Shown: positions 6,165 through 51,146 of the stretch, piece after piece
Position numbering within the stretch: the first letter of the stretch is position 1
How the letters are laid out: every line of letters starts with the position of its first letter
DNA from: a virus
Direction: 5' to 3' (one strand)
IMG/VR virus record: IMGVR_UViG_3300037010_002844
Coordinates: 128,001 to 192,000 of that record
DNA length: 64,000 nucleotides
Translations under genes and position numbers: made by a program
The notes under the pieces: model-generated
Database searches by the model: none
The model's input: the letters and a program-made list of their open reading frames with translations, nothing else
What the model was told of the DNA's origin: nothing

Positions 6165-6177
6165 ACGTGTCGGCCGT

Positions 6178-6522: not shown

Positions 6523-6547
6523 CTCCCGCCCGCGGGCTTACATACGG

Positions 6548-6853
6548 TCAGTTGCGGTAACGTACCTTTGGCGGGACGGCCTTGAGCTGGTCGACAAAGT
6601 CCCACCGCCTGTCAATTTCCTGCTCAAACTCGAGGGGCGACCAACCAGAGGCCCGCAGGACTTCCTCATACTCCCTGTCGTACTCGTGCTGTGACAGTTC
6701 ACCCGACTGGTATCGCACGGCTAGATCGTCGAGGATTGGTGCCATCTCATCGTAAGGCATCTTCCGCGGTACGCTCGCGAGGTGTTCCTTGACCAGTGCC
6801 TTGATGAGGTGTCTGAAGCGCAGCATGATCGTAAATAGCACGAAGGCCCCCAA
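6548..6853 (-). CDS. hypothetical protein (possible tail assembly chaperone by position)
   Basis: 101-aa ORF directly downstream of the tube-gene region. No motif recognised. Confidence 0.35.
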   Translation of the reverse strand: MGAFVLFTIMLRFRHLIKALVKEHLASVPRKMPYDEMAPILDDLAVRYQSGELSQHEYDREYEEVLRASGWSPLEFEQEIDRRWDFVDQLKAVPPKVRYRN

Positions 6854-7411
6854 TATAGGAGCCCTCGCCAGAAAGATCGTCGCCTTTGCGGTGACAGGAG
6901 AATCGACGATCCCTGATGTCTTTAACTATGGTGATGTGCCAGCTCATGACAGTCGGAACTCAGGACGATGCCGGAGACCTCATGGGCAGCATGATAATCA
7001 GCAACCCAATGGACGTAAGCTTGATGGGTTACGAAGTCTTCCGTCACATCGCCCAAGATCTCCCGGGCTTTCTGGAGAACCTCCACAAAGCGTTCCTTGG
7101 TTGTGCCCCCAATTATTCTTCACTCGTGAATGATGACCATGGACATACTTAGCGAAACCGGTCTGCAACGTCCAGAATTTAGGAATTTGACCGCACCCAC
7201 AAGCGCACTCTGGCTACACGTTCTTGCAAAAGAGAGCAACATAAAGATCACGCGACGTAAGTTTGTGTTTCTTTTGGCAATGGATTCGAAGTGAATCGAG
7301 GTTGTCGATTTCATAATCCGCGCACTTAGGACACTTAAACGAGGAAGGGTCCATCGGCAGCATTGTACCATGGACCCATAACCTGTATCTTCGACAGAAG
7401 TCGAAAGCGAT

Positions 7412-9054: not shown

Positions 9055-12000
9055 TCACTGCTGGGTGATGTTGTTGGTGACCACGAAGTCCAAGGAGACG
9101 AACTCGATCGACTTGGTCGGCTGGACATAGATCTTACCGCGGATCGTGTTGTTCTCGATGTCCTGCTGCGTCGTGGTGCTGGAGTCGATAATAACCTTGA
9201 ACCGCTCGAGGCCCGCCTGAGCCTGGATGCGCTGCAGACGCGGGGTAACCGCGGCCGTGAAGCGGGCCAGGGTGGCAGCCCTGTTGGGCTCGAAAATGAT
9301 CGTCTGCGAGATGTCGCGGACCTGGCGGCGGATCTCGATCAGCAACCTGCGAACGTTGACGCGATCGAGAGCCGAGGCCGCGGCCTGCAGGGTCTTCTGA
9401 CCCCAAACCACCACGCCGCCCTTCGGGTTGGTGCCACCGACGGCAGTTCCCGGGAAGGCGACCAATGGGTTGATGGCGACATCGTAGAGTGCGTCCATGT
9501 TAGGCTTCGACAGCTGAACACGGGCCTCGAGGACAGTCGGCAACGCACCGCGGGTGACACCGGCTGGAGCAAACCAGGGGTGACCGACCGCATCATTCAA
9601 GGCCAGGGCGCCGAGGACCGCGACAGAAGGTGGCGCGACGACGTTGGTCTTGGTGTTAGGATCCGGCATCACCACGTCTGGGAAGTAGGCAGCGGCGAAG
9701 TTGTTGTCCATCGCGCGGTTGGCGAACGAGTTGGCGGTGTAGGTGACAGACGGCAGCTGCGAATCAGTGAAGACCTCAGTGTCAGTGTTGTCGAACTGCT
9801 CGATGTCCATGATGTAGAGAGCATCAAACCGTTCCTTGACCGCGTCAGCCGCTGCGTTGGTGACGATCGGGTGACGGATGCCAGGGATCGCCAGCAACTG
9901 GATGTCTGTGTTCACCACGTTCTTCATGATTTCCAGCGCCTTGGCGTAGGTCCGGACGTTTGAGCCCTGGTCCCTGCCACGGTTGGTGGCGTTCATGTCA
10001 GCCGTGATGGCTGCGTTGTTGATCTCTGCTGAGTCCTTGTCGAACAGTAGGATTCCGTCGAAGCCGCCTTGCAATAGGAAGCTGAACTTGGCGAACCGAC
10101 GGTTGGCCTGGACGAGATCGTCTGTCTTGAAGGCCCGCGTCTTGTTGGCATCGTTAGCCGTGATCGCACCACCACGCACGTACTGTGCTGAGACCCACTG
10201 CGTCGGGTCAGCCAACGTCGTGGATGCCGTGACGACCTGCAGGTTCTCGAGGGTGAACAGGTTGTTGCAGAACCTGTCGGCATCAATGATGCCCCACGCG
10301 CCGGTGTCGACCGCGCCGGTGTTGTCACCGACAGACACGTTCTGGTTGATCTCCGAGAAGTCCGGGAAGTACTTGGCAAACGACTTCAACGAAGCGTTCT
10401 TCAAGGTCGATGCATTCGGAGTCGCCAGGCTGGCCACGTGCTCGAACTGGACGCCCCAGTAGAGCAATGGGTTGACTTGGACCTTGGCGCCAGAACCTGC
10501 GGTGATGTTGGAACGCATCGGCAGCGGCGGCTCGATTGCGCGCTTCAGGTAGGTGGCCGCAGTCAAGCTGCCGTCAGTGACGCTTGTCAGAGGAGCAGAG
10601 CCAGAGGTGACGAGGTGCTCGACGCCGCGGAAGCCCATGGGCAGTGCCGTCGGATCGACGGTGCCGTTCTCAACCCCAAGATCGACCTCGACGCGGACGA
10701 GGTTCGACTGTGCCGGGTAGTTGCCGTCGAAGACGATCTTCTGGGCCGGCTCGGCGCGGTCGAAGTCGAAGAACACGTGAGCATCGCCGACAATCTTGGC
10801 GATGTAGCGATCCGAGCTCGGATCCAAGTTGACGCCGCGGAACTGTTCCAGCGGCTGCTGAGCAGCATCGCGGTCGTTCCAGTCGCGGAGAACCAGGTCG
10901 AAGGAACCAAACTTGTTGGCTGGGTCCGTCGACGGGGTGATGTTCTCGATCGAGATCTTGTATAGCGTCGAGACATTGGCGCCGGCATCCAGAGCATGCA
11001 ACCGGAAGAGATTGGAAGGCGAGCCACCAAACTTCTGCGAGATGATCCACGGGGACTTAGCGTGGCTGAAACGATCAGTGAAGGCCTCGTAGTTCGGGAC
11101 CGTGCTCGAACCAACGTTGCGTGCAAGAGAAGCTGTCGTCAGGAAGACAGCAGTTTCAGCACCCGGTTTGGGCGCCGTGGCCGCACCTGCACCTGACAGC
11201 GCGGAAACGAGGCCCGAGCCGGTGACCACTGCAGTAGCAGGGTGAACGTCCCAGGATGCATACAGGAAGTGACCAGCCTGCTGAATCTTGTAGGGATCCG
11301 TGTTCAGGACGTTGGCAAAGTAGTTCGGGCTCGTCATGTCGAACGAAGCCGTGATAACGTTCGGGTACAGCGGGTCCGTTCCCTGGTGACCGTTCAACAG
11401 CAGCACGAAGTCCGACTTTGCGACACCTGCGTCCATCAGGACGACGGTGCCGACCAAGCCACCGTGAGCGGTGCCATCGGTAGCAACGAGGTTCGACGGA
11501 GGGGCTGAAGAGTTACCGGCTGTCGAAGAAGACACGCGGAGGATAACGCCCGAGGGGGCCATCAGCATGCCTCGAACGATGACCGCGGCAGTGTCTGCAC
11601 CGGGAGTCGTTGAACCCAATCCTTGGATGCCGGCCGACGAGAAGATAGTCGAACCAGCAGACTCTGACATGAACGCGCCGAGGAAGTAGGCTCGACCCAG
11701 AGGAGAACCCAAAGCGCCCGAATTGGCGTACGGGTTACCGTCCAGCGTGCCATCTGAGGCGCGCGGCAACTGCTGTCCGACAGTGAAACCAGCGCCGTTG
11801 ACCGAGCCGTCATCATTCCGCGTGCGGCCATCGCCTGCGCCCAGGACCCTGAGATAGGTCACTGCCTGCGCCTTGCGCATCCACTCAGTGACAGCCAACG
11901 GGCCGAACTTCTTGCCGTCGGTCTTACCGAACTTGGCGTAGAAGTCATCGATCGTGCCGACGGTGACCGGGATGAATGCAGGTCCTTTCACTGCCGTGCC

Positions 12001-12102
12001 AATAACGCCTGCGGGAACACCGACTGGTTCCTGGGTCACTGGACCCGAAAGATCGATTTCCCTTGCCGTCACGCCAGCGCTTCCGAACTTTAGCTGTGCC
12101 AT
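9055..12102 (-). CDS. tail sheath protein, paralog B (T4 gp18-like, 1015 aa)
   Basis: The C-terminal domain matches T4 gp18 closely: W.APAG.TRG ... LYD.AINP ... GQKT ... DRVNVRRL ... IYVQPTKSIEFVSLDFVVT. The N-terminus is paralogous to the upstream sheath gene. There are large insertions relative to the 659-aa T4 protein. Confidence 0.9.
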   Translation of the reverse strand: MAQLKFGSAGVTAREIDLSGPVTQEPVGVPAGVIGTAVKGPAFIPVTVGTIDDFYAKFGKTDGKKFGPLAVTEWMRKAQAVTYLRVLGAGDGRTRNDDGSVNGAGFTVGQQLPRASDGTLDGNPYANSGALGSPLGRAYFLGAFMSESAGSTIFSSAGIQGLGSTTPGADTAAVIVRGMLMAPSGVILRVSSSTAGNSSAPPSNLVATDGTAHGGLVGTVVLMDAGVAKSDFVLLLNGHQGTDPLYPNVITASFDMTSPNYFANVLNTDPYKIQQAGHFLYASWDVHPATAVVTGSGLVSALSGAGAATAPKPGAETAVFLTTASLARNVGSSTVPNYEAFTDRFSHAKSPWIISQKFGGSPSNLFRLHALDAGANVSTLYKISIENITPSTDPANKFGSFDLVLRDWNDRDAAQQPLEQFRGVNLDPSSDRYIAKIVGDAHVFFDFDRAEPAQKIVFDGNYPAQSNLVRVEVDLGVENGTVDPTALPMGFRGVEHLVTSGSAPLTSVTDGSLTAATYLKRAIEPPLPMRSNITAGSGAKVQVNPLLYWGVQFEHVASLATPNASTLKNASLKSFAKYFPDFSEINQNVSVGDNTGAVDTGAWGIIDADRFCNNLFTLENLQVVTASTTLADPTQWVSAQYVRGGAITANDANKTRAFKTDDLVQANRRFAKFSFLLQGGFDGILLFDKDSAEINNAAITADMNATNRGRDQGSNVRTYAKALEIMKNVVNTDIQLLAIPGIRHPIVTNAAADAVKERFDALYIMDIEQFDNTDTEVFTDSQLPSVTYTANSFANRAMDNNFAAAYFPDVVMPDPNTKTNVVAPPSVAVLGALALNDAVGHPWFAPAGVTRGALPTVLEARVQLSKPNMDALYDVAINPLVAFPGTAVGGTNPKGGVVVWGQKTLQAAASALDRVNVRRLLIEIRRQVRDISQTIIFEPNRAATLARFTAAVTPRLQRIQAQAGLERFKVIIDSSTTTQQDIENNTIRGKIYVQPTKSIEFVSLDFVVTNNITQQ

Positions 12103-12225: not shown

Positions 12226-15200
12226 TCACACGAACTGGACGCCGCTGTTAGTGATGATGAAGTCGATCGCGATATACTCGATGACCCTCGTCGGCACCAC
12301 GACGATCCGACCGCGGAGGCGGTTGAGGTCGATGTCTTCCTGCGTGTTGTTCGTCTCGTTCATGATAACTTGGAACGCTTCCACGCCAGCCTGGGACTGA
12401 ATTAGACCTAGTTGCAGGATTGCGTCGGCCACGAACTTGTTACGCACCTCGGGGGTGTTCTGCTCAAAGACCAGCTTCTGAGCGATACCCATGATGATGC
12501 GCTTGACCTCCAGGAGGAGGCGACGGACGTTGACCCTGTCGAGTGCCGACTTGTTGATCTGCAACGTCTTCTGGCCATAGATGACGAAGCCTAGCCTCGG
12601 GAAGGTTGCGATCGGGTTGATTCGTGAATCGTAGAGCCTGTCACGATCGGGCACATTGAGACGCACGCTGACGTTGGTGACAAAGTCCAGCGCTGCGCGG
12701 TTGAAGCCGGCAGGCGCGAACCATGGGTAGGCAACGCGATCGTTGAAGGCCAAGGCACCCATGGCGGCGACCGAGGCCGGAACCTTGACGCGGCGGCGGT
12801 TGGTCGCATCGTCAACGAAGACGTCCGGGTAGTACGTGCCAGCGTAGTTATTGTCCAACGCTCGAGCATCGAACTGGTTTGCCGTCTGATCGATCGAGGG
12901 CCGTGCTGCCGAGTCATCGTACAGACGGTTCGAGGAATCATCGTAGGATGGGATGTCCATCACGTAGTAGGCCAGACCGTAGTCGCGGACCTTGTTGAGG
13001 GCATACTCTGTGATAAAGCTCTCGCGGATGCCCGGCAACGCCAGGATGTTCGTGTTGACGACCAGAGGATCAGTCATGATGTCGATTGCCGTCTTGTAGG
13101 AAGCGACCGTCGCATTCTGCTGACCCGTCCCGGTCGGGTTGTAACCCAGACCAGGCGCCGAGTAACCGACCGCAGCACCGCCGCCAGCGTCGAAGGACGA
13201 GGCCTTGTCATTCATCCTCCTCGCATCGCGGTCGAGAACATTGACGCCGTCCCAGCCACCAGCCATGAAGGTGATGAACTTGGTGAACTGCGAAAAGCGA
13301 TTGAAGTCCGAGGCGCTGCCTTGAGCCAACAAGGTGGCCAATGTGACACGCGGTCCGAGGACCGGATCCTTGATGGTGTAGTTGGTCAGGTCGAGCTTGC
13401 CGTTACGGATGTAAGCTGCTTCCTTCATGTGATCCTGAACCGACGAGGTGATGTCAGTCAGGGCACCATTGGACAGTGCAACCTTCGCCAACGTGAACTT
13501 GTTGTTGTTCAGTTGGTCTGCGCCCGAGCCAGAGACCAAGGCGTCCAACTTAGGAATGCCCATGAACTTGGTGTACGACTCGAGCAGACCGTTCTTGTCG
13601 TTGATGAGGTTGGGATTGAGCGGCAGAGTGTTGCGCTCAAACTTGACGCCCCAGTAGAACTGGCTGAGTGTCAGCTCAGTCGAACCGGGCTGGCCAAGCC
13701 AGGCTGCGCCGGCCGGAGCATCGCCCTTCGTCACCTTGGTGCGGAAAGGAACGGGCGGGATGATCGAACCCGACAGGGAAGACGCGGAACCCACGCCCAG
13801 GACGCCAGCCAACCGTGCAGTGGCGGAAGACGGTGAAGCGTCGGTCAACAGGTCGTTGGTCTTCGGGACCACCGCGCCGCGGAAGCCGAAGGGTAGCGAC
13901 TTCTGAGGCACCAAAGCACGCTCAACCTGGTCCGCGATGACAACGCGGACATACTGCGAGACGTTCGGGTACTTGCCTGTGGCGACCACGCGGCGTTCAG
14001 AGTCCAACGTCGTGTCAAAGTTATAGCTGACCTTGCGATCGCCGATCAACTTGCCGATGTAGTGATCTGACATCGGATCCAGTGAACAGCCTGGGAACAT
14101 CTCCAGGACCAACGGATTGGTGTCCGTGTCGTTCCAATCGCGGATCTGGACGGTGAAGGTGCCGTACGGGTTGGAATCGTCCAGCGAAGCCTTGAGGTCC
14201 GTGATGGCGATCTTGAAGAGGTTGTTGGCGTATTCGCCGTCGTCCAATGCCTCGAACTTGAAGAGGTCGTACTCTGTCGTGCCGAATGGCTGCGAGATGA
14301 AGTACGTCGTGGACGGTGCACGGTAACGCGTGTCGAAGGCTCCAAAGACCTTCCTCATCGGAAGGGTCTTGTCACCCGAGGTGCTGCTGGTGTTGTTGGA
14401 GCCCGAGAGGACGCCGACCACAGTCGCAGTGGCGAGCTCATCATCGACCGGGAAGTCTGCATAGACCAGGTGCTGCTCCTGGACGAACTTGTCAGGATCC
14501 GTGTTCAAGATCTTGGCGAAGTAGTCTGGGCTCGTCGGATTAAGTGAGGCCGTGAAGATCCTGACGCCCGGGTTGCCATCCGTGTTCCAGAAGGCATTGC
14601 CCAAGGTCGAAGAAATCGCGAGTTTGAACTTGCCACCAACCATCAAGGCCGAGTCAACGTTGCTGCCGTTGAAGGCGCCGACGGCGGTGCCGTTGCCATC
14701 CAGGACCATGAGGCGCGCGGTGGTCGGCAGCATCACCATGCCGCGGACCAGGTTGACGGTCGATCCCGAGTAGGAATCGTTGTCCGTGAACATCGGGATT
14801 CCATAGGCCTCATCGCTCTGCAAGGTGTGCTGAGCTGCCAAGAACTGGATTGCGCCGTTGTGGCGGCCCAGCTTGTCGTCAACGGCCGGAGTGCCATCCA
14901 GGTGCATGCCAGCCGAGAGAACTCGACCCGTCTGCAACGTGTTGGCGATGTCTGACTGCGTTGCGTTGGCACCCGCGCCCAGGACCCTGAGATAGGTCAA
15001 TGCGCTGCGATGCTTTAGAAACTCGTTGACCGCATACGGACCAAAGAGCTTTGGATCAAGGTTGCCGAATGTGGCAATGAACTGATCGAAGTTCCCGACC
15101 GTGACAGGGACGAACGCAGGTCCCCTGTTTGCGGTGCCGACAACGCCGGCAGGCGTTCCGACCGGACCGACGGGTGTCGGGGTCGAAATGTCAATCTCGC

Positions 15201-15240
15201 GCTCGAAAAAGTTGGGCGACCTGAAAGTCTGCTCGGGCAT
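12226..15240 (-). CDS. tail sheath protein, paralog A (T4 gp18-like, 1004 aa)
   Basis: The N-terminus (PAGVVGTANRGPAFVPVTVG...LTYLRVLGAG) and the C-terminus (LDRVNVRRLLLEVKR...VVVPTRVIEYIAIDFIITNSG) are both homologous to paralog B and to T4 gp18. Confidence 0.9.
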   Translation of the reverse strand: MPEQTFRSPNFFEREIDISTPTPVGPVGTPAGVVGTANRGPAFVPVTVGNFDQFIATFGNLDPKLFGPYAVNEFLKHRSALTYLRVLGAGANATQSDIANTLQTGRVLSAGMHLDGTPAVDDKLGRHNGAIQFLAAQHTLQSDEAYGIPMFTDNDSYSGSTVNLVRGMVMLPTTARLMVLDGNGTAVGAFNGSNVDSALMVGGKFKLAISSTLGNAFWNTDGNPGVRIFTASLNPTSPDYFAKILNTDPDKFVQEQHLVYADFPVDDELATATVVGVLSGSNNTSSTSGDKTLPMRKVFGAFDTRYRAPSTTYFISQPFGTTEYDLFKFEALDDGEYANNLFKIAITDLKASLDDSNPYGTFTVQIRDWNDTDTNPLVLEMFPGCSLDPMSDHYIGKLIGDRKVSYNFDTTLDSERRVVATGKYPNVSQYVRVVIADQVERALVPQKSLPFGFRGAVVPKTNDLLTDASPSSATARLAGVLGVGSASSLSGSIIPPVPFRTKVTKGDAPAGAAWLGQPGSTELTLSQFYWGVKFERNTLPLNPNLINDKNGLLESYTKFMGIPKLDALVSGSGADQLNNNKFTLAKVALSNGALTDITSSVQDHMKEAAYIRNGKLDLTNYTIKDPVLGPRVTLATLLAQGSASDFNRFSQFTKFITFMAGGWDGVNVLDRDARRMNDKASSFDAGGGAAVGYSAPGLGYNPTGTGQQNATVASYKTAIDIMTDPLVVNTNILALPGIRESFITEYALNKVRDYGLAYYVMDIPSYDDSSNRLYDDSAARPSIDQTANQFDARALDNNYAGTYYPDVFVDDATNRRRVKVPASVAAMGALAFNDRVAYPWFAPAGFNRAALDFVTNVSVRLNVPDRDRLYDSRINPIATFPRLGFVIYGQKTLQINKSALDRVNVRRLLLEVKRIIMGIAQKLVFEQNTPEVRNKFVADAILQLGLIQSQAGVEAFQVIMNETNNTQEDIDLNRLRGRIVVVPTRVIEYIAIDFIITNSGVQFV

Positions 15241-34402: not shown

Positions 34403-34774
34403 TGGTGGAGGCGCCCGGAATCGAACCGGGGTCCGTAACAGATCCTCTGAGGACCTCATCCACAGGCTTGGTCCGTCTTGTTGCTCAACCTCCGGACGGG
34501 TCTAGCGACGCGAAATTTAGCGAGCTGGTCACCAACTCGACACTACGTTTTACGTCCAGTGCTTTGACGTGTTCCGCTTAACGTCCGGTTCCCCGACGTT
34601 TTCCCTGGCTTTCTGTTTCTAGGCGCCAGGACCCCATTCCTCAGGCCGCGAGGGCGAGAGGAGCAACACCATTGTCGTTGGCGTTTATACGTCACATGGG
34701 TTTTGAACTGGTCCCTCGTGCACCAGTGCCTGCAGTCTACAGTCTCAATGCCACGTCGAAGCCTAGTCGCCCCC
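34403..34774 (-). ncRNA. ssrA: tmRNA (ssrA), one-piece, about 372 nt
   Basis: Minus-strand RNA starts GGGGGCGACUAGGCUUCGACGUGG (compare E. coli GGGGCUGAUUCUGGAUUCGACGGG). It ends ...GGACCCCGGUUCGAUUCCGGGCGCCUCCACCA, a T-arm plus a 7-bp acceptor stem with a G3:U70 wobble. The internal tag ORF after ...GUAUAAAC reads GCC AAC GAC AAU GGU GUU GCU CCU CUC GCC CUC GCG GCC UGA = ANDNGVAPLALAA (34641..34682), ending in the canonical ALAA. Confidence 0.9.
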
Positions 34775-36795: not shown

Positions 36796-38697
36796 TCAGA
36801 TGACGTTCATGTCCAACACTGTGACGGTCCCGTAGAAGTCCGTGCGGACCATCTTCTTGCCGTATCGGGTCATGACACCCTTGCGCGGCGTGAAGTCTTC
36901 CGGCGCAAAAATCGTCGGGGTGACGATCAGTGGCACGTACGGGGCGTACACGTAACCCGTCTCGAGATAGCTGCCGCCCTTGTAGCCGATCAGGATCTTG
37001 TTGCGGGGGAAGTACGGGTCCTTGTAGACCGTGAAGCGGTTGGACACCGTGCCGATCGCTTCCGCACCAATGGTAAACGGAGAGCCAACCTGTCCCTCGC
37101 CATCGATCGAGAACTTCGGCTTGTACAGCGTGGAAGCCTCGAGGATGGTGCAGACGTCCGGGCCGGTGACCATAAAGTTGGCCGAGCCGCGAAGGGTCTT
37201 ACGGTGAATGGTGTTCGCCACGTCGATGATCGTCTCGATCAACGTCTCGTACCACTCGCGGACCGTGCCCGTGAATTGCGGGCCGATACTCAAGGAGCTC
37301 GCCAGCTGCTGACGGTCACCCGTCAGCTTGTTCACGAAGCGGCCCGGCGAACGCGACCAGAAGAAGTTCGCGCCGTTGGCCTGAGAGACGAGATCATTCA
37401 AGATCTCGCGGTCGATCTCGAGAGCGATCTGCTCCGAAAGGATGCTCGTCAGCTCGACCTCAGCGTCCATCGAGTGGTACGCGTTGAGGTCCTGTGCGAG
37501 TTCAGGCGACCAGCGAGCGCGGAGCCTGCGGGTTGTCGCGGTGATTGCGATCGACTCGATCTTGATATCGATCTCGGGGATGGCCGGAGCCGGGGTCACC
37601 GAGAAGTCCGTCTCGAAGGAGGGAACAGTCAAGGTCGCGCCCGAGCCACCATCGACCATGAGGGCGTCGGCGATCGCCATCGAAACCTTCTGCGTCGCCG
37701 TGTTCAGCGTTGGAACCGAGCCGCCGTTCGACAGCTTCAGCACGAACTGAATGTGCGAACCATTCAGCGGGTTCGGCGTGAAGACCGAGCCGTTCCAGTC
37801 ACCGCGCTTGTTCAGACGACGGAGGTTCAGCAGGCCCTTGCCCGACTGGTAGGAGTCACCCCACTCAACGGCGCCGTTGTTCGCCTGGAAGCCGAAGAGA
37901 GCGATCTGCTCCGGAGCAAGGAAGTCACCCTTCGGGATCTGGGCTGCGATTGCCGCGACCGAGAGGTGGACGAAGGTTACATCCAGGAGGTTGCTGCCCA
38001 GGTCGACCTCAACCTGCGGATCGAACTGCAACATGCGGGCGTTGGTGCCCGAGAAGTCCGTGCTCGAGGCCACGATGCCGCCGGCGGCCCAAGCGTTGTT
38101 GGCACCGGTCCATGCGCCAAGGTCGAGGTTCGAACCCGAGACACCCAGCGAGGCCGAGTGCACCTTCGAGTAACCGACATTCACCAGGTCGTACATACCA
38201 CCCGTGGCGAGTGATCCAGACTGGATGCCCTTGCCGGTCGGGTTGTTGTAGATCGACTGGCCACGCTGGTAAGTCTCGTAGGCCGAGGAGTTACTAAGCT
38301 GCGAGCCAGCATCACCACCAACGTTCGAGCCGTAGGTGTAATCGAGATAGAAGATCAGACCAGACGGTAGGCTCATCGGCTGAATCGAGACAAGCTCGTT
38401 TGCAACGAGGCCACCGAAGACGCGGCGGACGATCGGGAAGGCGATGTTCGAGAAGCCCTGGATCTGACCCGAGGAAGCGACAGCGCCGCCGCCAGTGGAC
38501 AGGGAGTTCGACTCCTTCAGGACCTGGGCAGCCTGGTTCTCCAGGAGCTGCGCCATCGTCTCGCGCTTGAAACCGTCGAGACCGCGGAGCAAGCCAGTAC
38601 GGCTCCACTTCTCAACAAGACGGGCACGCTCAGCACCGACGTGCTTCTCGCGGATGCCCTGGGCCAGCTGGTCCAGTGTAAAAAACTTTGAAGACAT
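36796..38697 (-). CDS. major capsid protein (T4 gp23-like)
   Basis: VSIQPMSLPSGLIFYLDYTYG vs T4 gp23 GVQPMNSPTGQVFALRAVYG. SPELAQDLNAYHSMDAEVELTSILSEQIALEIDREI vs gp23 SIELAQDLRAVHGMDADAELSGILATEIMLEINREV. GYKGGSYLETGYVYAPYVPL...TRYG vs gp23 GYKGPNEMDAGIYYAPYVAL...TRYG. Confidence 0.9.
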   Translation of the reverse strand: MSSKFFTLDQLAQGIREKHVGAERARLVEKWSRTGLLRGLDGFKRETMAQLLENQAAQVLKESNSLSTGGGAVASSGQIQGFSNIAFPIVRRVFGGLVANELVSIQPMSLPSGLIFYLDYTYGSNVGGDAGSQLSNSSAYETYQRGQSIYNNPTGKGIQSGSLATGGMYDLVNVGYSKVHSASLGVSGSNLDLGAWTGANNAWAAGGIVASSTDFSGTNARMLQFDPQVEVDLGSNLLDVTFVHLSVAAIAAQIPKGDFLAPEQIALFGFQANNGAVEWGDSYQSGKGLLNLRRLNKRGDWNGSVFTPNPLNGSHIQFVLKLSNGGSVPTLNTATQKVSMAIADALMVDGGSGATLTVPSFETDFSVTPAPAIPEIDIKIESIAITATTRRLRARWSPELAQDLNAYHSMDAEVELTSILSEQIALEIDREILNDLVSQANGANFFWSRSPGRFVNKLTGDRQQLASSLSIGPQFTGTVREWYETLIETIIDVANTIHRKTLRGSANFMVTGPDVCTILEASTLYKPKFSIDGEGQVGSPFTIGAEAIGTVSNRFTVYKDPYFPRNKILIGYKGGSYLETGYVYAPYVPLIVTPTIFAPEDFTPRKGVMTRYGKKMVRTDFYGTVTVLDMNVI

Positions 38698-43073: not shown

Positions 43074-43736
43074 TTACCTCTTGTACGACAGGATGTCGTT
43101 TAGAACCCGGTCAATCCGGTCGCTGCGGTTGAAGATCCGCTTCAGCTCGCCATCGCTTAGCTGGCGACCTTCTGGAATCATGAAGGCACCAGGCGTTGAA
43201 GGCTCAGAAACGTAGTCCCAACAGATCAACTGAAAGTCATCCTGAACCACGTAGTAGTCGCCATCCTTCCGAGTTGACCCCACGCCCCGCGAGGAGATAC
43301 CCAACTTGACGTTGCTCTCGGCCAACGACTGCAGGATCTGACCCGAGGGGGTATTCAGGATCTCGACGGTTCCCATCACTGTTCCGTTCTCGAGGTAGGC
43401 CTCACGGACAATGTGGGAAACGTTCTTCAGGTTGATGACCGAGGAATCAGGGTGATCGAGCTCACCAAGAGCACGATTCTCAATGATGAACTTCTGGTAG
43501 TTCCTGACCTCGCGCTCCAACACACGGAGCGGATAGATTCGGCCGTTCTGGTTTAGGGTGTCTGCCTTCTGCAGGATTCCCTTCATCAGGATCTTCTTGA
43601 CAGCGGGCACCTTGACAGCGTTGCCCTGAGAATCTTCAGTAATGGTCTCAGGCTTGACGACCTCGGTGACCAGCTTGTAGTCAAAGATGTCGTAGGTATT
43701 CAGTAGCCTCTGGTTGCTCATGACATCACTCCTCAC
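43074..43736 (-). CDS. prohead core protease (T4 gp21-like)
   Basis: QNGRIYPLRVLEREV ... GELDHPDSSVINLKNVSH vs T4 gp21 LNGRIYPKEVLDNAI ... GEFDHPDSHSINLKNVSH. Confidence 0.9.
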   Translation of the reverse strand: MRSDVMSNQRLLNTYDIFDYKLVTEVVKPETITEDSQGNAVKVPAVKKILMKGILQKADTLNQNGRIYPLRVLEREVRNYQKFIIENRALGELDHPDSSVINLKNVSHIVREAYLENGTVMGTVEILNTPSGQILQSLAESNVKLGISSRGVGSTRKDGDYYVVQDDFQLICWDYVSEPSTPGAFMIPEGRQLSDGELKRIFNRSDRIDRVLNDILSYKR

Positions 43737-44580
43737 CGTTTAGTTCGGTACTCAACTTGGTGTAAAGCATGAAGCGAGTCACTGTCTCATCATTGACCAC
43801 ATCGAGGGTCTCGGAGATCAGGCGCTCTCGGGCCTCGTTCAGCTTTTCATTGACGTACTTGTTAGCGTTTGCTGCAGTGTACTCGTCCATTCGTTGCAAC
43901 AGGTCAGACTTGATCTCTGCCAGTTTCTTGTGAATGACGGTCGGATCATCGTGAGCGGCCGAAAAGACATACGCCTTGACGAGTGACTTCTGATCATCGT
44001 TCAGGACACCAGCGTACTTCTCGTTCAACTTCTTTGTCATGACCTTCATCAACAGGCGAGCAGTTCCGTTAGACTCTTCACTGATGACATGATCATCAGC
44101 CTCTGGTCGTTCAGACACCAACCACTGGACCAACTGGTCCTCGTAGGTCGCCATCCTCGACAAGTCCTTGTCGGTCGATCGCCAATCATTGAGCAGCGTC
44201 TGCACGGTGGCATACATCCTGTACTCATTGATCTGTTGATCATAGAAGTTGTCATCTTTGATCGAGTAGTTGATGTGCTTGATGAGCAGCGACTTCTCGC
44301 GGTCCAGAGTCTGGATGTCGTGAGATCGGGCCGCCGAGCGCGCCTCGTTCAGGATGTTAGCAGCGACTGCCTCTGACGTCACCTTCGTCTTAATCAACGA
44401 ATTGACGAGCCTAAACTCTCGGTACAGCTCAGAACCAGGCTTGAAGTGCTTTCGGAGGATCTTCAACGCCACGGCAGACTTCTTCTGGTTGCCCTCGACG
44501 AGGGCGGTCGAAATGGTGCGGACAAGGAACTCGTAGAGTAGTCCAGCATTACGCTTCTTGTTGTGGCCCTTGCTGCTCAT
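43726..44580 (-). CDS. hypothetical head protein (prohead core / gp67-gp68 position)
   Basis: 284 aa, lying between the portal and the protease. The N-terminus contains LVEG (an L-x-E site). Confidence 0.35.
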   Translation of the reverse strand: MSSKGHNKKRNAGLLYEFLVRTISTALVEGNQKKSAVALKILRKHFKPGSELYREFRLVNSLIKTKVTSEAVAANILNEARSAARSHDIQTLDREKSLLIKHINYSIKDDNFYDQQINEYRMYATVQTLLNDWRSTDKDLSRMATYEDQLVQWLVSERPEADDHVISEESNGTARLLMKVMTKKLNEKYAGVLNDDQKSLVKAYVFSAAHDDPTVIHKKLAEIKSDLLQRMDEYTAANANKYVNEKLNEARERLISETLDVVNDETVTRFMLYTKLSTELNGEE

Positions 44581-47500
44581 GACTCGTCATCCTCGTTGTC
44601 ATCATCGATGATAAGTACATCGCCTTCGTTAATGGCGCTGCCTGTCAGACCCGGTTCGATCGACTCATCAATCTCGATGTTGATCTCTTGGTCCTCTTTT
44701 ATCAAACCATTCTTCGATCCGCGCTCACCAGGGAACTTCTTTTCCCAACTTAGCAACGCAGCGACCACGTCGCCAGGAAGCCGCTGCTGACGTGCGACGC
44801 TTTCGCCGAATGGGTCGCTGACGACAGACTTCAAGAAGTCGGTATCGTAAGGATCCTCCATCGCTCGATTGTCAGTCGAAGTCATCTTCCTGAAGTCAGG
44901 CATGTGCGTCTTAGACGGTCCGTGCGTCAAGTGACGGCTACGGTTGTAGAGCACGCGGTCAAGCTGCTTCTGAGCCTTGACTGGAATCTCGACGTCCTTC
45001 ATGGCGCCGACGCGGAGCCCAAATGTCTCATCGTCATCATTGTCGTCAGCTGACGTCAGGAGCTGAACACCAGGCGTGGTCTCCTCTTCTGGTTCCTCAC
45101 CTGCGTTTTCCTCGGGAGGCGTCTCTTCTCCGCCTGCGGGTTCCTCACCGCCTCCACCTTCATCGCCGCCGCCAAAGAGGTCTTCGCCTCCCCCGCCGCC
45201 ATCCCCTCCAGCACCCGCGCCGGACTCGATGGCTGCGTCAACGACCTTATCTTTCATGCGATTCTTGTCGATCTGCTTGCACTCCTGATCGTTGAGGCCC
45301 CAGATCTCCTTGCGGACAAAGTCCTTATCAATGAAGCCTTCAGGGGCCGAGCCGCCGATCTCAAACTTGGCACGCCACAGTTCTAGCTTCTGTTGCTGTG
45401 CGACAGTCGACGGGTTGGACAGATGCAACGTAAAGTTCTGCAGATCATCACCGTCATACCCGTGTGCATAGAGGTGGATGATCGCCAGCTTGTTGAGCTC
45501 GGCAAGGATCGTCTTCTGAATGACAGCAATGGTACGCGAGAACCTGATGTCCTCCTGCGCCAACGTGGCCTTGCTGCTAAGCATCTCATCGTAACCCAAG
45601 TAGGCGCGTGGGATCTTCAGAGCAGCAAACAGCTTCTTCTGAATGTAGGCCACGTCCTCGACGGCGGCAGTGTTCTGGCCTCCCGCGAGGGTTTCAATGC
45701 GAGTTCCAGACTCTTGGCCACGAACTGGGATGAAGTAGTCCTCATCGACGCTCTGAAACGCAAATATTAGTCCTACACCACCACCACCACCATGAGGTGA
45801 TTGTGCACCTTTCGCAGCATTTTCACCACCCACGGCAAGATTGTGCCATCGATCAACGGTAACACTGTACACATCTTCAGTTGTATCGATGAGCTCAACA
45901 GAAATGACGACGTGGTTGTTCGCACCGTCAGAAGCAACAACGCCGGTGTCAACGTTGTTGACGTACTGACGACCCAAGGCCGCAGGATGGTGCGCAGCCC
46001 AAACTGCCTTCCAGTTAAGGTAATCGGCGATGATGAACTTACCGACGACGTTTTTATGCAGCGATTTCGCGAGATCGTGAGCCAGATGAGCGTTCGTTGC
46101 TGCGTAGAGCTTCATGAACGTTACGTCGGACTTCAACCGTCTCAGGAACGCATCGAGCCCCTCGAACCTACGAAGCGATCTGATGACGTTGATAACGTAG
46201 ACCTGGCACTCAGGCGACCAAACATAGCGCATGTTCTGTCGGGCACGCTCCCTTCGTTCAGGGTCAGCCCACATCGTAGACATCGCTTCAGAACGTTTGA
46301 CGTAATGCTCAGCGTTCGTTATCAACTGCAGGTTGCCAGTTGAGTTGTTGAGCTTGTCAAAGTTGACGTGATGAATTGTCTTTCCCTGCTGTGAGATGTG
46401 CCCGTTCCGATAGACCTCGAGCCCGAACGCATGAGCCGCGATCAACTCGTGGGTAAAGATGCGTGTTCCGAACGATGGATCGAGCACCTTTTCGTAACAG
46501 TGCTTGTCAACTTCAGAAACTTCAGCGCCTGACATCGGTGCATATGTAACGTGCAACGGCATCAAGCTGTCGCCCGAACGTAGATCCTTCGCTTTAACGT
46601 GAGAACCATCACGAAGCATCATCCTATGTTCAGGTGTGACATTGATGACGCCGCCGTCGTCCAGCGTCACCCTGACAAACTGTTTCGTAGTACCTGACTT
46701 CCCGGCCCAGATCACCTTGCCGGGTACCAACCTACCCCCCGCTTCGAGATCAAGGGAATAAGTCTCATGGTCTCGGCGCCCTTCATTCCACTCCTTGACT
46801 AGCTCATCGATCCGCAGCATCCTACCATCCAACAATGGTATCTGAACGTTCGCTGCGAAGCACAGTGGATTGTACCTGAGGTCCACACGACCAGAAGAGC
46901 GATCAATGACCTGATTCGTCCTGAGGTTCTTCCTCTGCTCTTCAACATAAAGAGGCACGTCCTGCGCTGGAACGTTGGCAACGTCGATGTAGAAGACGCG
47001 GCGTTCAGGTGCCCTGACGACGCGGTACACCAACATTGCATCTTCGATGAGGATCAACTGACGCCAAATGCGGCGGGCAGGCTCAATGATCGATGACCCG
47101 TAAGGCAAGAACATGTCGTTGCCCAAGAGCCGAAAGTGAGTGATCTCCCAGTTCTCGAGGACTCGATTACCTAGGGTGACCCAGCGATACCTGACCGCAA
47201 ACGGATCGTCACGATCGTAGTTCTCTTCGCGCTCGATCTCGTTGACAGGGATCGGGAACGCTGAGACGACTCCGTACGTTGGAGAAACGTCATTATAGAG
47301 GAAGAAGTCGCCGTACTTAACAAGATTGCGCGCCCAGGATCGCAGGTTGAACTCGGTGTTCAACGTATTGTAGAAAAGGTCCTCGAGCACCTCGCGAATC
47401 TTCTCATTGTCCGAGTAAATGTGGAGGACGCGGCCTTTCTCATCCTGTGCACACGTTTCGTCGGCATAGATGTCAAGAGCAGCCGCGATCTCAGGAGTAT

Positions 47501-49088
47501 TGTGCGAGATCACACTATCGGTGGCAAAGTTCTTGTACCCGTCAACGGTGAGGTCGTAGAGAGGGATCTCACCGACATACTCAACGGAAACTACCTTACA
47601 GTTGTTGTAAGTCTCCTGAAAGTCACTAAACTTCTTGAAGCCATTCTGCGACAACCTGGAGATAATCGTGTTCTTGTTGGCGCCAAGCTTTTCGGCGAGA
47701 CGAGGCAACGTCACGCTGGGTGTATATGCATCACAGATCTGTTGGAACGTCAGTGAATTACCGTTCGAACCTCGTGGACGACCGCCCTTTCGGACGCTCT
47801 TAATCTGATTGACGGTCACTTCCTCGTCGTGATACCCCATTGTTGAACGCAACTCTGTCCACGACATCCGGGCGCGGCGGGCCAAAAACTTGTCAAGTAC
47901 GTTGACAGTGCAACCGAGCTTAATGCACAAAGAACGCTTCGTGTCACCAGCAGTCATCGAAGACTTCAATAGCTCGAGGCTCAAGTCCCGTGTCAGTAGA
48001 CCGGGTCGGTTGTTGATCATAGAATCAGCTTGACCGCCAGCATATGCCGCAACAAATTTATTGAACGTTGAGAATCCGTGGGTCGCCAATCGTTCATAGA
48101 TCAGGTTCCATGTGACATCAAGAGCATTTGCAATCGCCGGCATGCTGAAACCAACACGTTCAGCAGTCTCTAGGATTCGAGCAAAAGTCACATCCCTGCG
48201 AGCGCCAGGAGCATTGTCACGCATCCGAGCTGCATGGTTCTTCTTGAACTCTTCGATCCACTCACGGTTTTCGGGTGCCCACTTCACCCCGTTGTTGATC
48301 GCGGCGTGGTAACTGTCATGGGCAGACTTCGTCATGATCCTGAGATTTTCAGGACGATTATCAGTCTTAATGAAGTTGATGTGGTGGACAACCTCATCTT
48401 CGTTGAGCTGACGACCGGCAACCCACTCAGCGATCAGTTGGTGCTCTTTGGTCCAACCGCGGAACCTATCGTCCATCGTGTAGATCCACGAGTAGCCAAG
48501 GGTGCCTTCTTTGGCATCAGCAAAGATGTCTTTGCGGTAGAAGGGCATCATTGCATCGCCGGGTTTCAGGTCCTCAACACGACGGTATGTACCGTCACGA
48601 AGCATCAGTCGATGTTCCGGTGATGCAACAATCTCTTTTCCATTATCAAATTTGATCTTCCAGGCACTATCGACACAGGTCTGACGAGCCTGTTTACCGA
48701 ACGCCGGAACGATGCGCTTCAAATTGTGATCGTACGAATAGACAATGAAGATGTGATCCGGATTTTTCTCACACTCTTGCGCTAGCTCACCTATAGTCTT
48801 GAAACCATCTGAGGTTGCGATCTTAGTGTCAATCGCAAGTGAATACTCCATTTCTTGAAAGTCCTGATAGCGCATCAAGCGCTCGCTCAGGTTGTAGGCA
48901 TTTGCCGTGATGGTCGCGTAGGTCGGCGCCAGCGACTTCTGAAAGAGCAACGTGCCTGACGACTTAGTCTTGTCAGCGACCGCGATCGTCGTGTCGGCGG
49001 TGCGGATCTTCTTCTTGATGACAGGACCACTTCGAAACAGTCGCGTCAGTCGTCGGAAAAGGCTTTGAGGTGCTTCTTTTTTTGCCAT
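44577..49088 (-). CDS. portal protein (T4 gp20-like) interrupted by two intein-like insertions; long acidic Gly/Glu-rich C-terminal extension
   Basis: 1503 aa. It sits immediately upstream of the gp21-like protease, at the gp20 position. Two Hint domains carry HNH modules (see the mobile_element features). The extein segments total about 550 aa, plus a roughly 250-aa acidic tail (GGDGGGGGEDLFGGGDEGGGGEEPAGGEETPPEE...). Confidence 0.7.
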   Translation of the reverse strand: MAKKEAPQSLFRRLTRLFRSGPVIKKKIRTADTTIAVADKTKSSGTLLFQKSLAPTYATITANAYNLSERLMRYQDFQEMEYSLAIDTKIATSDGFKTIGELAQECEKNPDHIFIVYSYDHNLKRIVPAFGKQARQTCVDSAWKIKFDNGKEIVASPEHRLMLRDGTYRRVEDLKPGDAMMPFYRKDIFADAKEGTLGYSWIYTMDDRFRGWTKEHQLIAEWVAGRQLNEDEVVHHINFIKTDNRPENLRIMTKSAHDSYHAAINNGVKWAPENREWIEEFKKNHAARMRDNAPGARRDVTFARILETAERVGFSMPAIANALDVTWNLIYERLATHGFSTFNKFVAAYAGGQADSMINNRPGLLTRDLSLELLKSSMTAGDTKRSLCIKLGCTVNVLDKFLARRARMSWTELRSTMGYHDEEVTVNQIKSVRKGGRPRGSNGNSLTFQQICDAYTPSVTLPRLAEKLGANKNTIISRLSQNGFKKFSDFQETYNNCKVVSVEYVGEIPLYDLTVDGYKNFATDSVISHNTPEIAAALDIYADETCAQDEKGRVLHIYSDNEKIREVLEDLFYNTLNTEFNLRSWARNLVKYGDFFLYNDVSPTYGVVSAFPIPVNEIEREENYDRDDPFAVRYRWVTLGNRVLENWEITHFRLLGNDMFLPYGSSIIEPARRIWRQLILIEDAMLVYRVVRAPERRVFYIDVANVPAQDVPLYVEEQRKNLRTNQVIDRSSGRVDLRYNPLCFAANVQIPLLDGRMLRIDELVKEWNEGRRDHETYSLDLEAGGRLVPGKVIWAGKSGTTKQFVRVTLDDGGVINVTPEHRMMLRDGSHVKAKDLRSGDSLMPLHVTYAPMSGAEVSEVDKHCYEKVLDPSFGTRIFTHELIAAHAFGLEVYRNGHISQQGKTIHHVNFDKLNNSTGNLQLITNAEHYVKRSEAMSTMWADPERRERARQNMRYVWSPECQVYVINVIRSLRRFEGLDAFLRRLKSDVTFMKLYAATNAHLAHDLAKSLHKNVVGKFIIADYLNWKAVWAAHHPAALGRQYVNNVDTGVVASDGANNHVVISVELIDTTEDVYSVTVDRWHNLAVGGENAAKGAQSPHGGGGGVGLIFAFQSVDEDYFIPVRGQESGTRIETLAGGQNTAAVEDVAYIQKKLFAALKIPRAYLGYDEMLSSKATLAQEDIRFSRTIAVIQKTILAELNKLAIIHLYAHGYDGDDLQNFTLHLSNPSTVAQQQKLELWRAKFEIGGSAPEGFIDKDFVRKEIWGLNDQECKQIDKNRMKDKVVDAAIESGAGAGGDGGGGGEDLFGGGDEGGGGEEPAGGEETPPEENAGEEPEEETTPGVQLLTSADDNDDDETFGLRVGAMKDVEIPVKAQKQLDRVLYNRSRHLTHGPSKTHMPDFRKMTSTDNRAMEDPYDTDFLKSVVSDPFGESVARQQRLPGDVVAALLSWEKKFPGERGSKNGLIKEDQEINIEIDESIEPGLTGSAINEGDVLIIDDDNEDDES
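45801..46862 (-). mobile_element. intein 2 in portal gene (HNH type), C-terminal junction uncertain
   Basis: Begins CFAANVQIPLLDG (block A) with block B VINVTPEHRMMLRDG. The HNH module is HHVNFDKLNNSTGNLQLITNAEHY. Block G-like VYSVTVDRWHNLAVGG is present. No canonical terminal HN+(C/S/T) was found, so the end is placed approximately (residue 1083-1096 of the ORF). Confidence 0.5.
47499..48842 (-). mobile_element. intein 1 in portal gene (about 448 aa, HNH homing endonuclease type)
   Basis: Begins SLAIDTKI (block A with a Ser1 nucleophile) and has block B VASPEHRLMLRDG. The HNH module is HHINFIKTDNRPENLRIMTKSAHDSYH. Blocks F/G read VEYVGEIPLYDLTVDGYKNFATDSVISHN, followed by extein +1 Thr. Confidence 0.65.
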
Positions 49089-49517: not shown

Positions 49518-51146
49518 TCACCGTAGCAACCAGCTAAAATCGCTCACGTCAGCATTCTTGATCTGCGATGGATCGCGGGGCTTGTGAACGTTGTAAGGAT
49601 TAACGCCCCTGATGTTAGGATTGATCAGCGGCTGTGCTGACTGAATGTCACCTGGCATCTGCGCTGAGTCCCTGCGCGCGACCTGCGTGGCCTTCAACAT
49701 GGCCATCGCCATCTCATGAGCCTGTTCATTGACTCCTGAACCGCCGTTGGTCAGCCAAATGCCAATCGCTAGACTCATAATCAAGTCGTCATGACTGTCA
49801 CGGGTGGCCTGAGCCTTGGACCCCTGCCAGATGAAGGCCTGCATCTGATCGTAGAAGCGTTGCGAGTAGATTTTGACAATCTTGTTGCGGATGATCTCCT
49901 CGAGCTTCGCCAGGATCTGCGGACGAGTGTTACCTTGCGTCTCAAAGCCAGGAATTGCCTCTGGGTCGCTCGAGATGTACTCGAACATGTCGCCTGTCAT
50001 ATTGCGATAATACAGACGCTTGTAGCCGATGTCTCTGAGTCTGACAGCCGTCATGTAGCCAAAATTGTTACGCTCTGGGCACAGCAAGGCAGTGTTATAC
50101 TTCTTGCCGTAGTCAGCTAGAAGGTCGGCCAACTTGTCAGGCGGAATCTTGCCCATGTATTCTGCGACGACTTCACAATCATTTACGTCAATGACGTGCA
50201 TCGTCGAATAGTCGGCAGCGTCTCCACGGGCCACGTCAGATGAAATAACATACTTCTTGCCCGGCTCAGGATCAGACCAGATCCAGACAGCATTCTGCGG
50301 TCCTTCTTTGCGAATCGGACTGTCGATCATGCTCCTGAGATAGTCCATCTCCGTGGGTTGCAGGAATGTGTCACCTGACGAGATGAAGTCGCAAAGGAAC
50401 TCCTGGGCAACTTTTCGCTTTGGCAGGTTCTTGGTTTCCTTGTCAAACCATGCCTGATCGTGCTCGGGATGAACGTGCCATGGAAGATTGATAGTGTTGA
50501 ACTCATTGACCTGTGCTATTGCGTCGGTCCACAACTTGTAGTACATGCCGCCGACGCCGTTAGGCGTGGAAATAATGATCGCAGAACCGCCCGTGGAGAT
50601 AGTCGGATAGAGACCGGTCCAGATCTCTTCAAAGTCTCTGATGAATGCGGCCTCATCGACGATGAGAAGTGACAAGGCCTCCGAACGACCAGCGTCTGGT
50701 GAGGTCGGTACGGCCGCGATGACTGACCCATTGGCAAACGTGATCTGTTGCTTGGTCGATTCGAACTTGGTGAGGAGCAACCACTTGGGCAGGCCGTCAA
50801 GGATTGTCTTCACCTTCTTGATGAAGTTCATGGCGGTCTGCAACTTGGTAGCGATGACCAGGACGTTCTTGTCCTTCTTGAAGATCGCGTACCAGACGGC
50901 GTAGGCCGCGGTGACGGTTGACAGGCCCAGCTGACGTGACTTCAGGACGATGTTGAAGCGATTCTCTTCAAATGCCTTGATGCAGTCATCCTGAAAGTAG
51001 TAGGTGTCGAACGGGATCAGGCCCCTCTTGGGGTGCTGGATCTTCGCATAGTTCTTCATGAAGTAGACGGCGTTTTTGCCGCACTTCAGAATCTCGCGGA
51101 CCTGTTCTTCTCTACCGAGCGGACCGTTGGACGTGGCAATTGACAT
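49518..51146 (-). CDS. terminase large subunit (T4 gp17-like)
   Basis: ENRFNIVLKSRQLGLST vs gp17 NRFNACNLSRQLGKTT (Walker A region). LLIVDEAAFI (Walker B) vs gp17 IYIEDCAFI. IIISTPNG vs gp17 IITTTPNG. The Walker A is the deviant type with an N-terminal Lys (KSRQLGLST), lacking the canonical GK(T/S) Lys. Confidence 0.9.
   Translation of the reverse strand: MSIATSNGPLGREEQVREILKCGKNAVYFMKNYAKIQHPKRGLIPFDTYYFQDDCIKAFEENRFNIVLKSRQLGLSTVTAAYAVWYAIFKKDKNVLVIATKLQTAMNFIKKVKTILDGLPKWLLLTKFESTKQQITFANGSVIAAVPTSPDAGRSEALSLLIVDEAAFIRDFEEIWTGLYPTISTGGSAIIISTPNGVGGMYYKLWTDAIAQVNEFNTINLPWHVHPEHDQAWFDKETKNLPKRKVAQEFLCDFISSGDTFLQPTEMDYLRSMIDSPIRKEGPQNAVWIWSDPEPGKKYVISSDVARGDAADYSTMHVIDVNDCEVVAEYMGKIPPDKLADLLADYGKKYNTALLCPERNNFGYMTAVRLRDIGYKRLYYRNMTGDMFEYISSDPEAIPGFETQGNTRPQILAKLEEIIRNKIVKIYSQRFYDQMQAFIWQGSKAQATRDSHDDLIMSLAIGIWLTNGGSGVNEQAHEMAMAMLKATQVARRDSAQMPGDIQSAQPLINPNIRGVNPYNVHKPRDPSQIKNADVSDFSWLLR

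Follow-up and report, generated by a model that had tools for sequence, protein, structure and literature searches.

Results and discussion

A T4-type portal gene interrupted by two inteins

We analyzed a 64,000-nucleotide stretch of viral DNA (positions 128,001 to 192,000 of IMG/VR record IMGVR_UViG_3300037010_002844; hereafter the window), in which a portal gene of the T4 gp20 family contains two inteins. The open reading frame (ORF) occupies 44577..49088 on the minus strand, starts with ATG and encodes 1503 amino acids (aa). A Pfam scan of the ORF returned Portal_T4 (1.5e-61, 208.9 bits), Intein_splicing (2.1e-28) and HNH_3 (2.8e-16), each in two stretches, and either intein scanned by itself passed the curated cut-offs of both Intein_splicing and HNH_3. 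A PHROGs scan returned the portal family phrog_213 together with many HNH families. These matches are highly significant, and chance is excluded as their source. The first-pass annotation had described a portal gene with two inteins, each carrying an HNH endonuclease of its own. The profile matches bear this out, and the motifs quoted at the time lie where they had been placed (aa 83 SLAIDT, 526 VISHNT, 743 CFAANV and 1073 VYSVTVD). The gene is composed of the following parts.

44577..49088 (-), stop codon counted in: portal gene (gp20 family), precursor; Portal_T4 208.9 bits, phrog_213
48843..49088 (-): N-extein, aa 1-82, ending ...QEMEY; gapless alignment with intein-free alleles
47499..48842 (-): intein 1, aa 83-530 (448 aa); Intein_splicing 56.8 bits, boundaries by alignment
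48318..48443 (-): HNH_3 endonuclease motif of intein 1, aa 216-257 (HHINF...N...NL...H..H); PF13392 and several PHROG HNH families
46863..47498 (-): middle extein, aa 531-742 (TPEIAAALD ... DLRYNPL); 73-100% column identity in 92 relatives
45753..46862 (-): intein 2, aa 743-1112 (370 aa); Intein_splicing 51.2 bits, boundaries by alignment
46305..46406 (-): HNH_3 motif of intein 2, aa 895-928 (IHHVNF...NN...NL...AEH); PF13392, beta-beta-alpha element predicted in the model
45825..45878 (-): block F of intein 2 (EDVYSVTVDRWHNLAVGG), position F:4 being Ser1075 (AGT); alignments with related inteins
45774..45824 (-): Gly-rich loop between blocks F and G (ENAAKGAQSPHGGGGGV), longer than in relatives; alignment and model confidence
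45753..45773 (-): block G of intein 2, GLIFAFQ, last beta-strand and terminal Gln; strand from the model, junction from alignment
45243..45752 (-): C-extein portal core, aa 1113-1282 (SVDEDYFIPVRG...); best Portal_T4 stretch 1110-1278
44580..45242 (-): acidic Gly/Glu/Asp-rich tail, aa 1283-1503, ending ...VLIIDDDNEDDES; composition and conservation in 92 relatives

The assignment to the T4-type portals (gp20, PF07230) follows from the Portal_T4 domain and from the flanking genes for TerL and an S77-type prohead protease. In a phmmer comparison with the T4 gp20 structures 3JA7/6UZC the extein scored 1e-24; the spliced extein matches gp20 residues 261-503, and gp20 covers extein positions 227-457 only. 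According to this alignment the insertion site of intein 2 corresponds to gp20 328|329. The two inteins are paralogous (29% identity across 206 aa, E = 9e-17), and their GC content at third codon positions is 0.57-0.58 compared to 0.69 in the extein core, which is consistent with mobile DNA. Taken together, the gene very probably encodes the portal of a T4-like jumbo phage, made as a 1503-aa precursor that holds two mobile inteins of one HNH-intein superfamily and gives a 685-aa spliced product. In annotation, the 1503-aa ORF is best treated as two inteins set into a 685-aa portal, with junctions that are now exact.

Exact boundaries and intein-free alleles

The closest annotated intein-free portals are those of Microcystis phage Mel-JY01 and the Flavobacterium 'immuto' phages (~41-43% identity). 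Alignment of the unspliced protein with intein-free portals in MAFFT scrambled the intein 1 region, which was cured by removing the inteins before aligning. Once S83-N530 and C743-Q1112 were taken out, the remaining 685-aa extein aligned with the Mel-JY01 and immuto portals with no gap at either junction. Used as a query, the spliced extein retrieved more than 7900 homologues. The best 120 of them are 63-90% identical to it; 92 are free of inteins (657-735 aa), and the other 28 hold a single one. When long gaps were made cheap in pairwise alignments, all top-120 homologues agreed on these boundaries. Comparison of the extein segments with homologous portals had been proposed beforehand as a check on whether the inserts are native portal domains: the inserted segments are absent from intein-free portals, and the insertion points are at extein positions 82 and 294.

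The intein-free relative L004, for which the DNA was in hand, has the residues RYQDFQEMEY|TPEIAAALDI and GRVDLRYNPL|SVDEDYF, the same as in the exteins of the window. Because these flanks are identical at both sites, splicing would regain the wild-type portal sequence exactly. Intein 1 is an in-frame insertion at a conserved site of which intein-free alleles exist in the 92 relatives, L004 included.

Intein 1 is a canonical class 1 intein

Intein 1 starts with Ser1 (TCA), has block B SPEH and block F LYDLTVDGYKNF, and ends in VISHN before the +1 residue Thr531. Its match to PF14890 (Intein_splicing) reached 56.8 bits against a cut-off of 35.8 and spans profile positions 9-155, with the HINT blocks A, B, F and G all present. 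The residues expected of class 1 are in place (Ser83, SPEH, His529-Asn530, Thr531). The nested HNH_3 domain (PF13392) scored 40.1 bits, the curated cut-off being 24.8. The gapless extein alignment shows that the boundaries 83-530, the Ser nucleophile and the HN|T junction had been given exactly right in the first-pass annotation, while the block B motif, quoted there as TxxH, is SPEH.

Alleles at the same site are 64-78% identical to intein 1, the closest being that of P0085 (78%). Among 38 cleanly delimited site-82 alleles, 17 have Ser1 and 21 have Cys1, and every one has Asp at F:4, a terminal His-Asn and a +1 Thr. Judged by its residues, intein 1 is a wholly canonical class 1 intein with a Ser1 that is common among alleles.

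Intein 2 belongs to a Gln-terminal subfamily

Intein 2 begins with Cys1 (TGC), has block B TPEH and ends in Phe1111-Gln1112 (CAG), followed by the +1 residue Ser1113 (AGC). Its match to PF14890 (51.2 bits) is above the curated cut-off and stops at profile position 147 of 155, which marks its block G as atypical. An AlphaFold2 model of the intein with three flanking residues per side had a mean predicted local distance difference test (pLDDT) score of 81.7 and was weak only at a linker (model residues 301-318) and in the Gly loop (356-364, pLDDT <50). The final beta-strand of the model lies at residues 369-372 (L1108-A1111), directly ahead of Gln1112. A Foldseek search of the PDB with this model gave a probability of 1.00 to the Ssp DnaE, Mtu RecA and PI-PfuI inteins and to the Gln-terminal Pab PolII intein, and profile, model and Foldseek all point to the HINT splicing fold.

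The alignment with related inteins also settled the layout of the C-terminal part. The segment VYSVTVDRWHNLAVGG, taken at first for a block G-like element, is block F; the Gly-rich loop comes next, and the true block G, GLIFAFQ, directly abuts SVDEDYF. The earlier observation that a terminal His-Asn is lacking therefore holds, as does the suggestion of an unusual Gln|Ser end, but the junction is FQ(1112)|S(1113), 16 residues downstream of the KGAQ|S proposed as an example. If the intein did end at ...KGAQ(1096)|S(1097), SPHGGGGGVGLIFAFQ would be part of the mature portal. This too would be a Gln|Ser junction, yet it leaves a 16-residue insertion that is seen in no intein-free homologue, whereas FQ|S is gapless. 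Moreover, LIFA forms the final HINT strand in the model, and all 70 inteins found at exact site 294 in a full HMMER scan stop directly before SVDEDYF-type sequence. On the alignment with intein-free portals we rejected the Q1096|S1097 junction, which is almost certainly wrong.

The HMMER scan with intein 2 returned 3595 relatives, and portal proteins made up 134 of the best 150. A word-indexed protein search with intein 2 alone gave no match, which reflects a limit of its sensitivity, since inteins of ~55% identity are present in the same collection and the full-length protein as query did retrieve an identical protein from it; negatives of such searches need caution where domains are nested within long proteins. 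Intein 2 falls into a subfamily of 12 members (the window, P0121-P0124, P0127, P0131, P0150, P0274, P0275, P0281 and P0300), the others being 36-56% identical to it (P0124 ~54%). Cys1, the Thr and His of block B, the terminal Gln and the +1 Ser are invariant in all 12. The penultimate residue is Phe or Trp in every member, such that all end in [F/W]Q|S. The terminal Gln is encoded by CAG in the window and by CAA in P0124, so that the residue has been kept through a synonymous difference. Position F:4 is Asn in 11 of the 12 and Ser only in the copy of the window, where the codon AGT of Ser1075 is one transition away from the Asn codon AAY of P0124.

Intein 2 thus has the Cys1, TxxH (TPEH) and +1 Ser nucleophile of a class 1 intein and lacks the C-terminal His-Asn. 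Native inteins with a C-terminal Gln splice by the same four steps, Gln cyclisation being step 3, and many functional inteins have no His at G:6 (PMC4031507). Because Gln can act as a functional substitute and the G:6 His is dispensable in many inteins, we regard intein 2 as a variant class 1 intein and not as a non-member. The non-canonical junction, as read from the sequences of the subfamily, is a conserved and precedented variant, since all 12 members end in [F/W]Q|S and native Gln inteins are known to splice; it stems neither from damage nor from faulty sequencing. Its mechanism would most likely be class 1 splicing in which the Gln cyclises. We also considered class 3, which is defined by a non-nucleophilic residue 1, Cys F:4, Trp B:12 and Thr G:5 (PMC2807308), and rejected it for intein 2, which has Cys1, Met B:12, Ser F:4 and Ala G:5.

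Changes private to intein 2 and the question of impaired splicing

Several properties of intein 2 weigh against a fully functional element. Its F:4 Ser is unlike its own subfamily, and F:4 is catalytically important in other inteins. The loop from block F to block G is 4-9 residues longer than in relatives, Gly-rich and of low confidence in the model, and Gln cyclisation is slow in some characterised inteins (PMC4031507). Its HNH_3 match (PF13392) reached the threshold with 26.8 bits against 24.8, that is, by only 2 bits, and a segment of 51 aa is deleted directly after the ...AEH of the HNH motif. This segment is kept in 10 of the 11 other subfamily members and holds a conserved His-containing motif, SxxHxE...YNxSxLHxxHN. 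Since the deletion adjoins the HNH motif, the endonuclease of intein 2 may be decaying; the deletion resembles the decay that homing endonucleases usually undergo once fixed, and the predicted enzyme is perhaps inactive. The intein of P0127 is without the entire endonuclease.

These changes could be taken to mean that intein 2 as a whole is decaying and, as the first-pass annotation had held possible, impaired in splicing, so that maturation fails in a defective or minority genome or only cleavage takes place, and the allele is heading to loss. The private F:4 Ser, the 51-aa deletion in the endonuclease region and the extended Gly loop before block G fit this possibility, as do the absence of His at G:6 and of Asn at G:7 and the profile match that halts at 147/155. 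However, we consider such an impairment unlikely. Intein 2 interrupts a strongly conserved motif, YNPL|SVDEDYF, in an essential gene present as a single copy; the other catalytic residues are intact, the 1110-nucleotide reading frame is intact and the HINT fold is confidently predicted. In addition, impairment is not favoured because the [F/W]-Gln|Ser end is the norm of the subfamily and invariant in 12 of 12 members. A protein identical to the 1503-aa portal of the window (P0273) is found on 5 public contigs, three of them of 0.2-1 Mb. The allele is therefore that of a repeatedly assembled phage, which argues for a replicating phage and, indirectly, for maturation of the portal.

Proposed splicing route

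In the reading that we prefer, a functional portal precursor with two mobile inteins, each intein would excise itself after translation and join its flanks, giving a 685-aa portal like that of the intein-free relatives. The ligated junctions would read ...QDFQEMEY-TPEIAAALDIYADE... and ...VDLRYNPL-SVDEDYFIPVR... Intein 1 would take the standard class 1 route, in which an N-O acyl shift at Ser83 is followed by attack of Thr531, cyclisation of Asn530 helped by His529, and an O-N shift. Intein 2 would likewise follow the class 1 route, with a thioester at Cys743, attack of Ser1113 and resolution of the branch by cyclisation of Gln1112. The latter residue would act in an active site whose residues vary together among subfamily members, with Asn or Ser at F:4 and Phe or Trp replacing His at G:6. 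The nested HNH endonucleases would provide the means of homing into empty alleles.

The acidic C-terminal tail

The Gly/Glu-rich tail, which had been called unusual for gp20, is real (24.5% D+E and 14% G in the last ~220 aa) but unusual only in comparison with T4 itself. All 92 intein-free close relatives carry the same extension with few gaps and similar composition, including a moderately conserved island (extein 551-600) and a shared acidic ...VLIIDD(E/D)n end. The tail is therefore a trait of the host portal lineage and not of this gene, and it is unrelated to the inteins. The Mel-JY01 and immuto portals run ~150 aa beyond the Portal_T4 domain, a shorter tail. A Pfam scan of the tail alone matched no family. 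The AlphaFold2 monomer model of the spliced extein was poor (pLDDT 48.6, predicted template modelling score 0.26), and the insertion sites and the order of the tail could not be read from it. Portal C-termini point into the capsid interior, and a role of the tail in scaffold, core or DNA interactions, or its removal by the prohead protease, is therefore plausible.

Genomic context of the portal gene

The portal gene is neighboured by the two genes listed here and by two further ORFs of 103 aa and 284 aa.

49518-51146: TerL, without intein
43074-43736: prohead protease, S77-type

The gene order is SbcC-like, TerL, small ORF, portal, ~285-aa ORF, S77 protease, and on to gp23; in the portal region it is identical in the window, in one intein-free relative and in one two-intein relative. 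A profile built from portal inteins matched no other ORF of the window, so that TerL, as had been stated before, and the remaining ORFs are intein-free. Neither Rfam nor ARAGORN detected an intron or any other RNA element inside the portal gene. Related contigs are up to 340-370 kb long, and 429 related loci are present in IMG/VR, which places the window in an environmental jumbo-phage clade that has been sampled well.

Three observations concern other parts of the window. A full-length tmRNA gene lies at 34403-34774 (-) in the phage structural region (Rfam RF00023 93.1 bits, E = 5.9e-35), with the ARAGORN tag peptide ANDNGVAPLALAA*. Two adjacent paralogues of ~1000 aa at 9055-12102 (-) and 12226-15240 (-) match tail sheath families, but in both the match is confined to the C-terminal ~320 residues. 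At 36796-38697 (-), the ORF of the major head protein encodes 633 aa, of which the gp23-type match (phrog_138) spans residues 364-616 only; the N-terminal ~360 aa outside this match lie in a region of raised GC (0.60-0.62).

Intein-rich portals across the clade

Two inteins in one portal gene are not unusual in this ~350-kb phage clade, where multi-intein portals are common. An independent hidden Markov model count gave 2 to 6 inteins per portal in a set chosen by similarity to intein 2, which is biased to intein-rich proteins. Portals with up to six inteins are P0128 (2818 aa), P0130 (2930 aa) and P0218 (3009 aa). Clean insertions fall into at least a dozen extein sites and are concentrated near positions 77, 82, 87, 93, 97, 141, 230, 294, 319, 352/353 and 358, and the exact 82+294 layout of the window is found in 13 of 88 further portal clusters. 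The published but unannotated 484-kb huge-phage genome LR756508.1 (L003) encodes a 1386-aa portal at 2740-6900 (+) with three inteins near extein sites 216, 230 and 354; the ORF upstream of it, at 877-2658 (+), also bears an intein (CVSGDTRVL...VIVHN|C). The literature searched contained no account of T4-type portals with several inteins from huge phages, nor of the intein-rich T4-type portal family of the ~350-kb clade. Portal inteins, in-frame HNH inteins and two-intein phage genes are each already on record (PMC5050341, 2025 actinophage survey, PMC7886860). These relatives make the T4-type portals of an abundant environmental phage clade an intein hot spot, which is of wider value than the window gene by itself.

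Site 294, where intein 2 resides, is taken by four unrelated-looking intein lineages. One of them (P0313, P0314, P0318, P0287 and P0302) starts with CHFGNDYIYLCDG and ends in GIFLLN|S or GVFVRN|S, and its block F (APAYGVTVENSTH) is unlike that of the other three. Outside the window, 56 inteins at sites 141 and 294 start with Pro (P0006, P0070, P0086, P0095, P0279, P0282 and others). All 56 have Cys at F:4 and His at B:10. At B:12, 43 of these have Phe, 6 have Trp and 5 have Tyr; at G:5, 52 carry Val, Leu or Ile and one carries Thr. None has His at G:6, and the +1 residue is Ser (28), Cys (25) or Thr (3). The class 3 prototype MP-Be DnaB also has Pro1, and Pro1, Cys F:4 and +1 Ser/Thr are class 3 features (PMC2807308). 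By their residues, the Pro1 portal inteins appear class-3-like but non-WCT and not canonical, and may represent a divergent class 3 or an independent origin. A 2014 review regarded class 3 inteins as monophyletic, the 'single event' view (PMC4031507). Protein engineering would find many new splicing domains among inteins of this Pro1/Cys-F:4 kind.

The occupancy of site 294 also bears on the idea that intein 2 is retained as a regulator, its slow or conditional Gln splicing timing or switching the supply of portal after translation. Splicing of Gln-terminal inteins can be slow, with step 3 rate-limiting (PMC4031507), and the Gln lineage persists in divergent phages even where the endonuclease is lost wholly (P0127) or partly (window). 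Most close relatives, however, have no intein at this site, so that an intein there is dispensable, and four unrelated-looking lineages at one site are the pattern of a homing hot spot and not of a conserved regulator. We hold a regulatory role to be quite improbable.

Beyond the preferred reading of a spliced portal with two inteins, the data tentatively suggest a wider picture, which is possible but which we put forward with less than even confidence: a Gln-terminal phage intein lineage whose active site co-evolved for Gln cyclisation, and a single homing site that holds several mechanistic classes. The co-evolved set would comprise Cys1, Met B:12, Asn F:4, Phe or Trp G:6, Gln G:7 and Ser +1. 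The allele of the window would then be a natural F:4 Asn-to-Ser variant, and YNPL|SVDEDYF would be shared with three further lineages, one of them Pro1/Cys-F:4. If true, site 294 would display mechanistic intein classes as a natural series, and chemistry of the class 3 type would extend more widely or have arisen more than once, in contrast to the 'single event' view. We found no description of the Gln-terminal phage lineage of intein 2 in the literature searched. The gene of the window is itself a clear but ordinary example, because a Gln end is a rare but known variant and relatives often have two or more portal inteins; the Pro1/Cys-F:4 inteins outside the window are the more novel lead. 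For intein biology, it offers a phage example of predicted Gln-terminal splicing with an aromatic penultimate residue, combined with a natural variant at F:4.

Comparison with known systems

The closest mechanistic parallels of intein 2 are the Gln-terminal class 1 inteins of the Pyrococcus abyssi (Pab) and Methanoculleus marisnigri (Mma) Pol II and of the Chilo iridescent virus (CIV) ribonucleotide reductase (RNR), which likewise combine a Gln end and a +1 nucleophile with a standard N-terminal nucleophile and block B His. Their splicing was shown experimentally, with a step 3 that is efficient in the CIV RNR intein but slow in the two Pol II inteins (PMC4031507). Intein 2 differs from them in its host protein, a phage portal, and in its lineage, and its subfamily is set apart by Phe/Trp at G:6 and Asn/Ser at F:4. 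Moreover, intein 2 has a nested HNH domain, unlike inteins of the mini-intein or LAGLIDADG type, and as to homology the comparison with the Pab, Mma and CIV inteins covers the shared HINT fold.

Inteins in phage portal genes have also been reported from actinobacteriophages and mycobacteriophages (Kelley et al. 2016, PMC5050341; Gosselin et al. 2025 preprint), and the penultimate His is poorly conserved among phage inteins according to the same studies. The actinophage portals belong to a different portal family, the phages are of ~50-150 kb and the inteins are mostly of the LAGLIDADG type. In contrast, the portal of the window is T4-type (PF07230), comes from a ~350-kb phage and has in-frame HNH domains, and several inteins per gene are possible. 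The in-frame HNH phage inteins of Dalgaard et al. (1997), as cited in the 2025 actinophage survey, have the HNH domain between the N- and C-terminal splicing halves, as is the case here. Such in-frame HNH domains are rare according to that survey but dominant in the portal family of the window.

An essential morphogenesis gene with more than one intein has a precedent in the TerL of crAss-like phages, which carries two (PMC7886860). There, the host gene is another one and the inteins are of the Hint-Hop type, and portals of the window clade reach six inteins. Finally, class 3 inteins (MP-Be DnaB, WCT) resemble not the intein of the window but its Pro1 relatives at the same site, with which they share Pro1, Cys F:4, His B:10 and, at site 294, mostly a +1 Ser/Thr. 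The Pro1 relatives differ from class 3 in having Phe (43/56) instead of Trp at B:12, Val/Leu/Ile instead of Thr at G:5, and a +1 Cys in 25 of 56.

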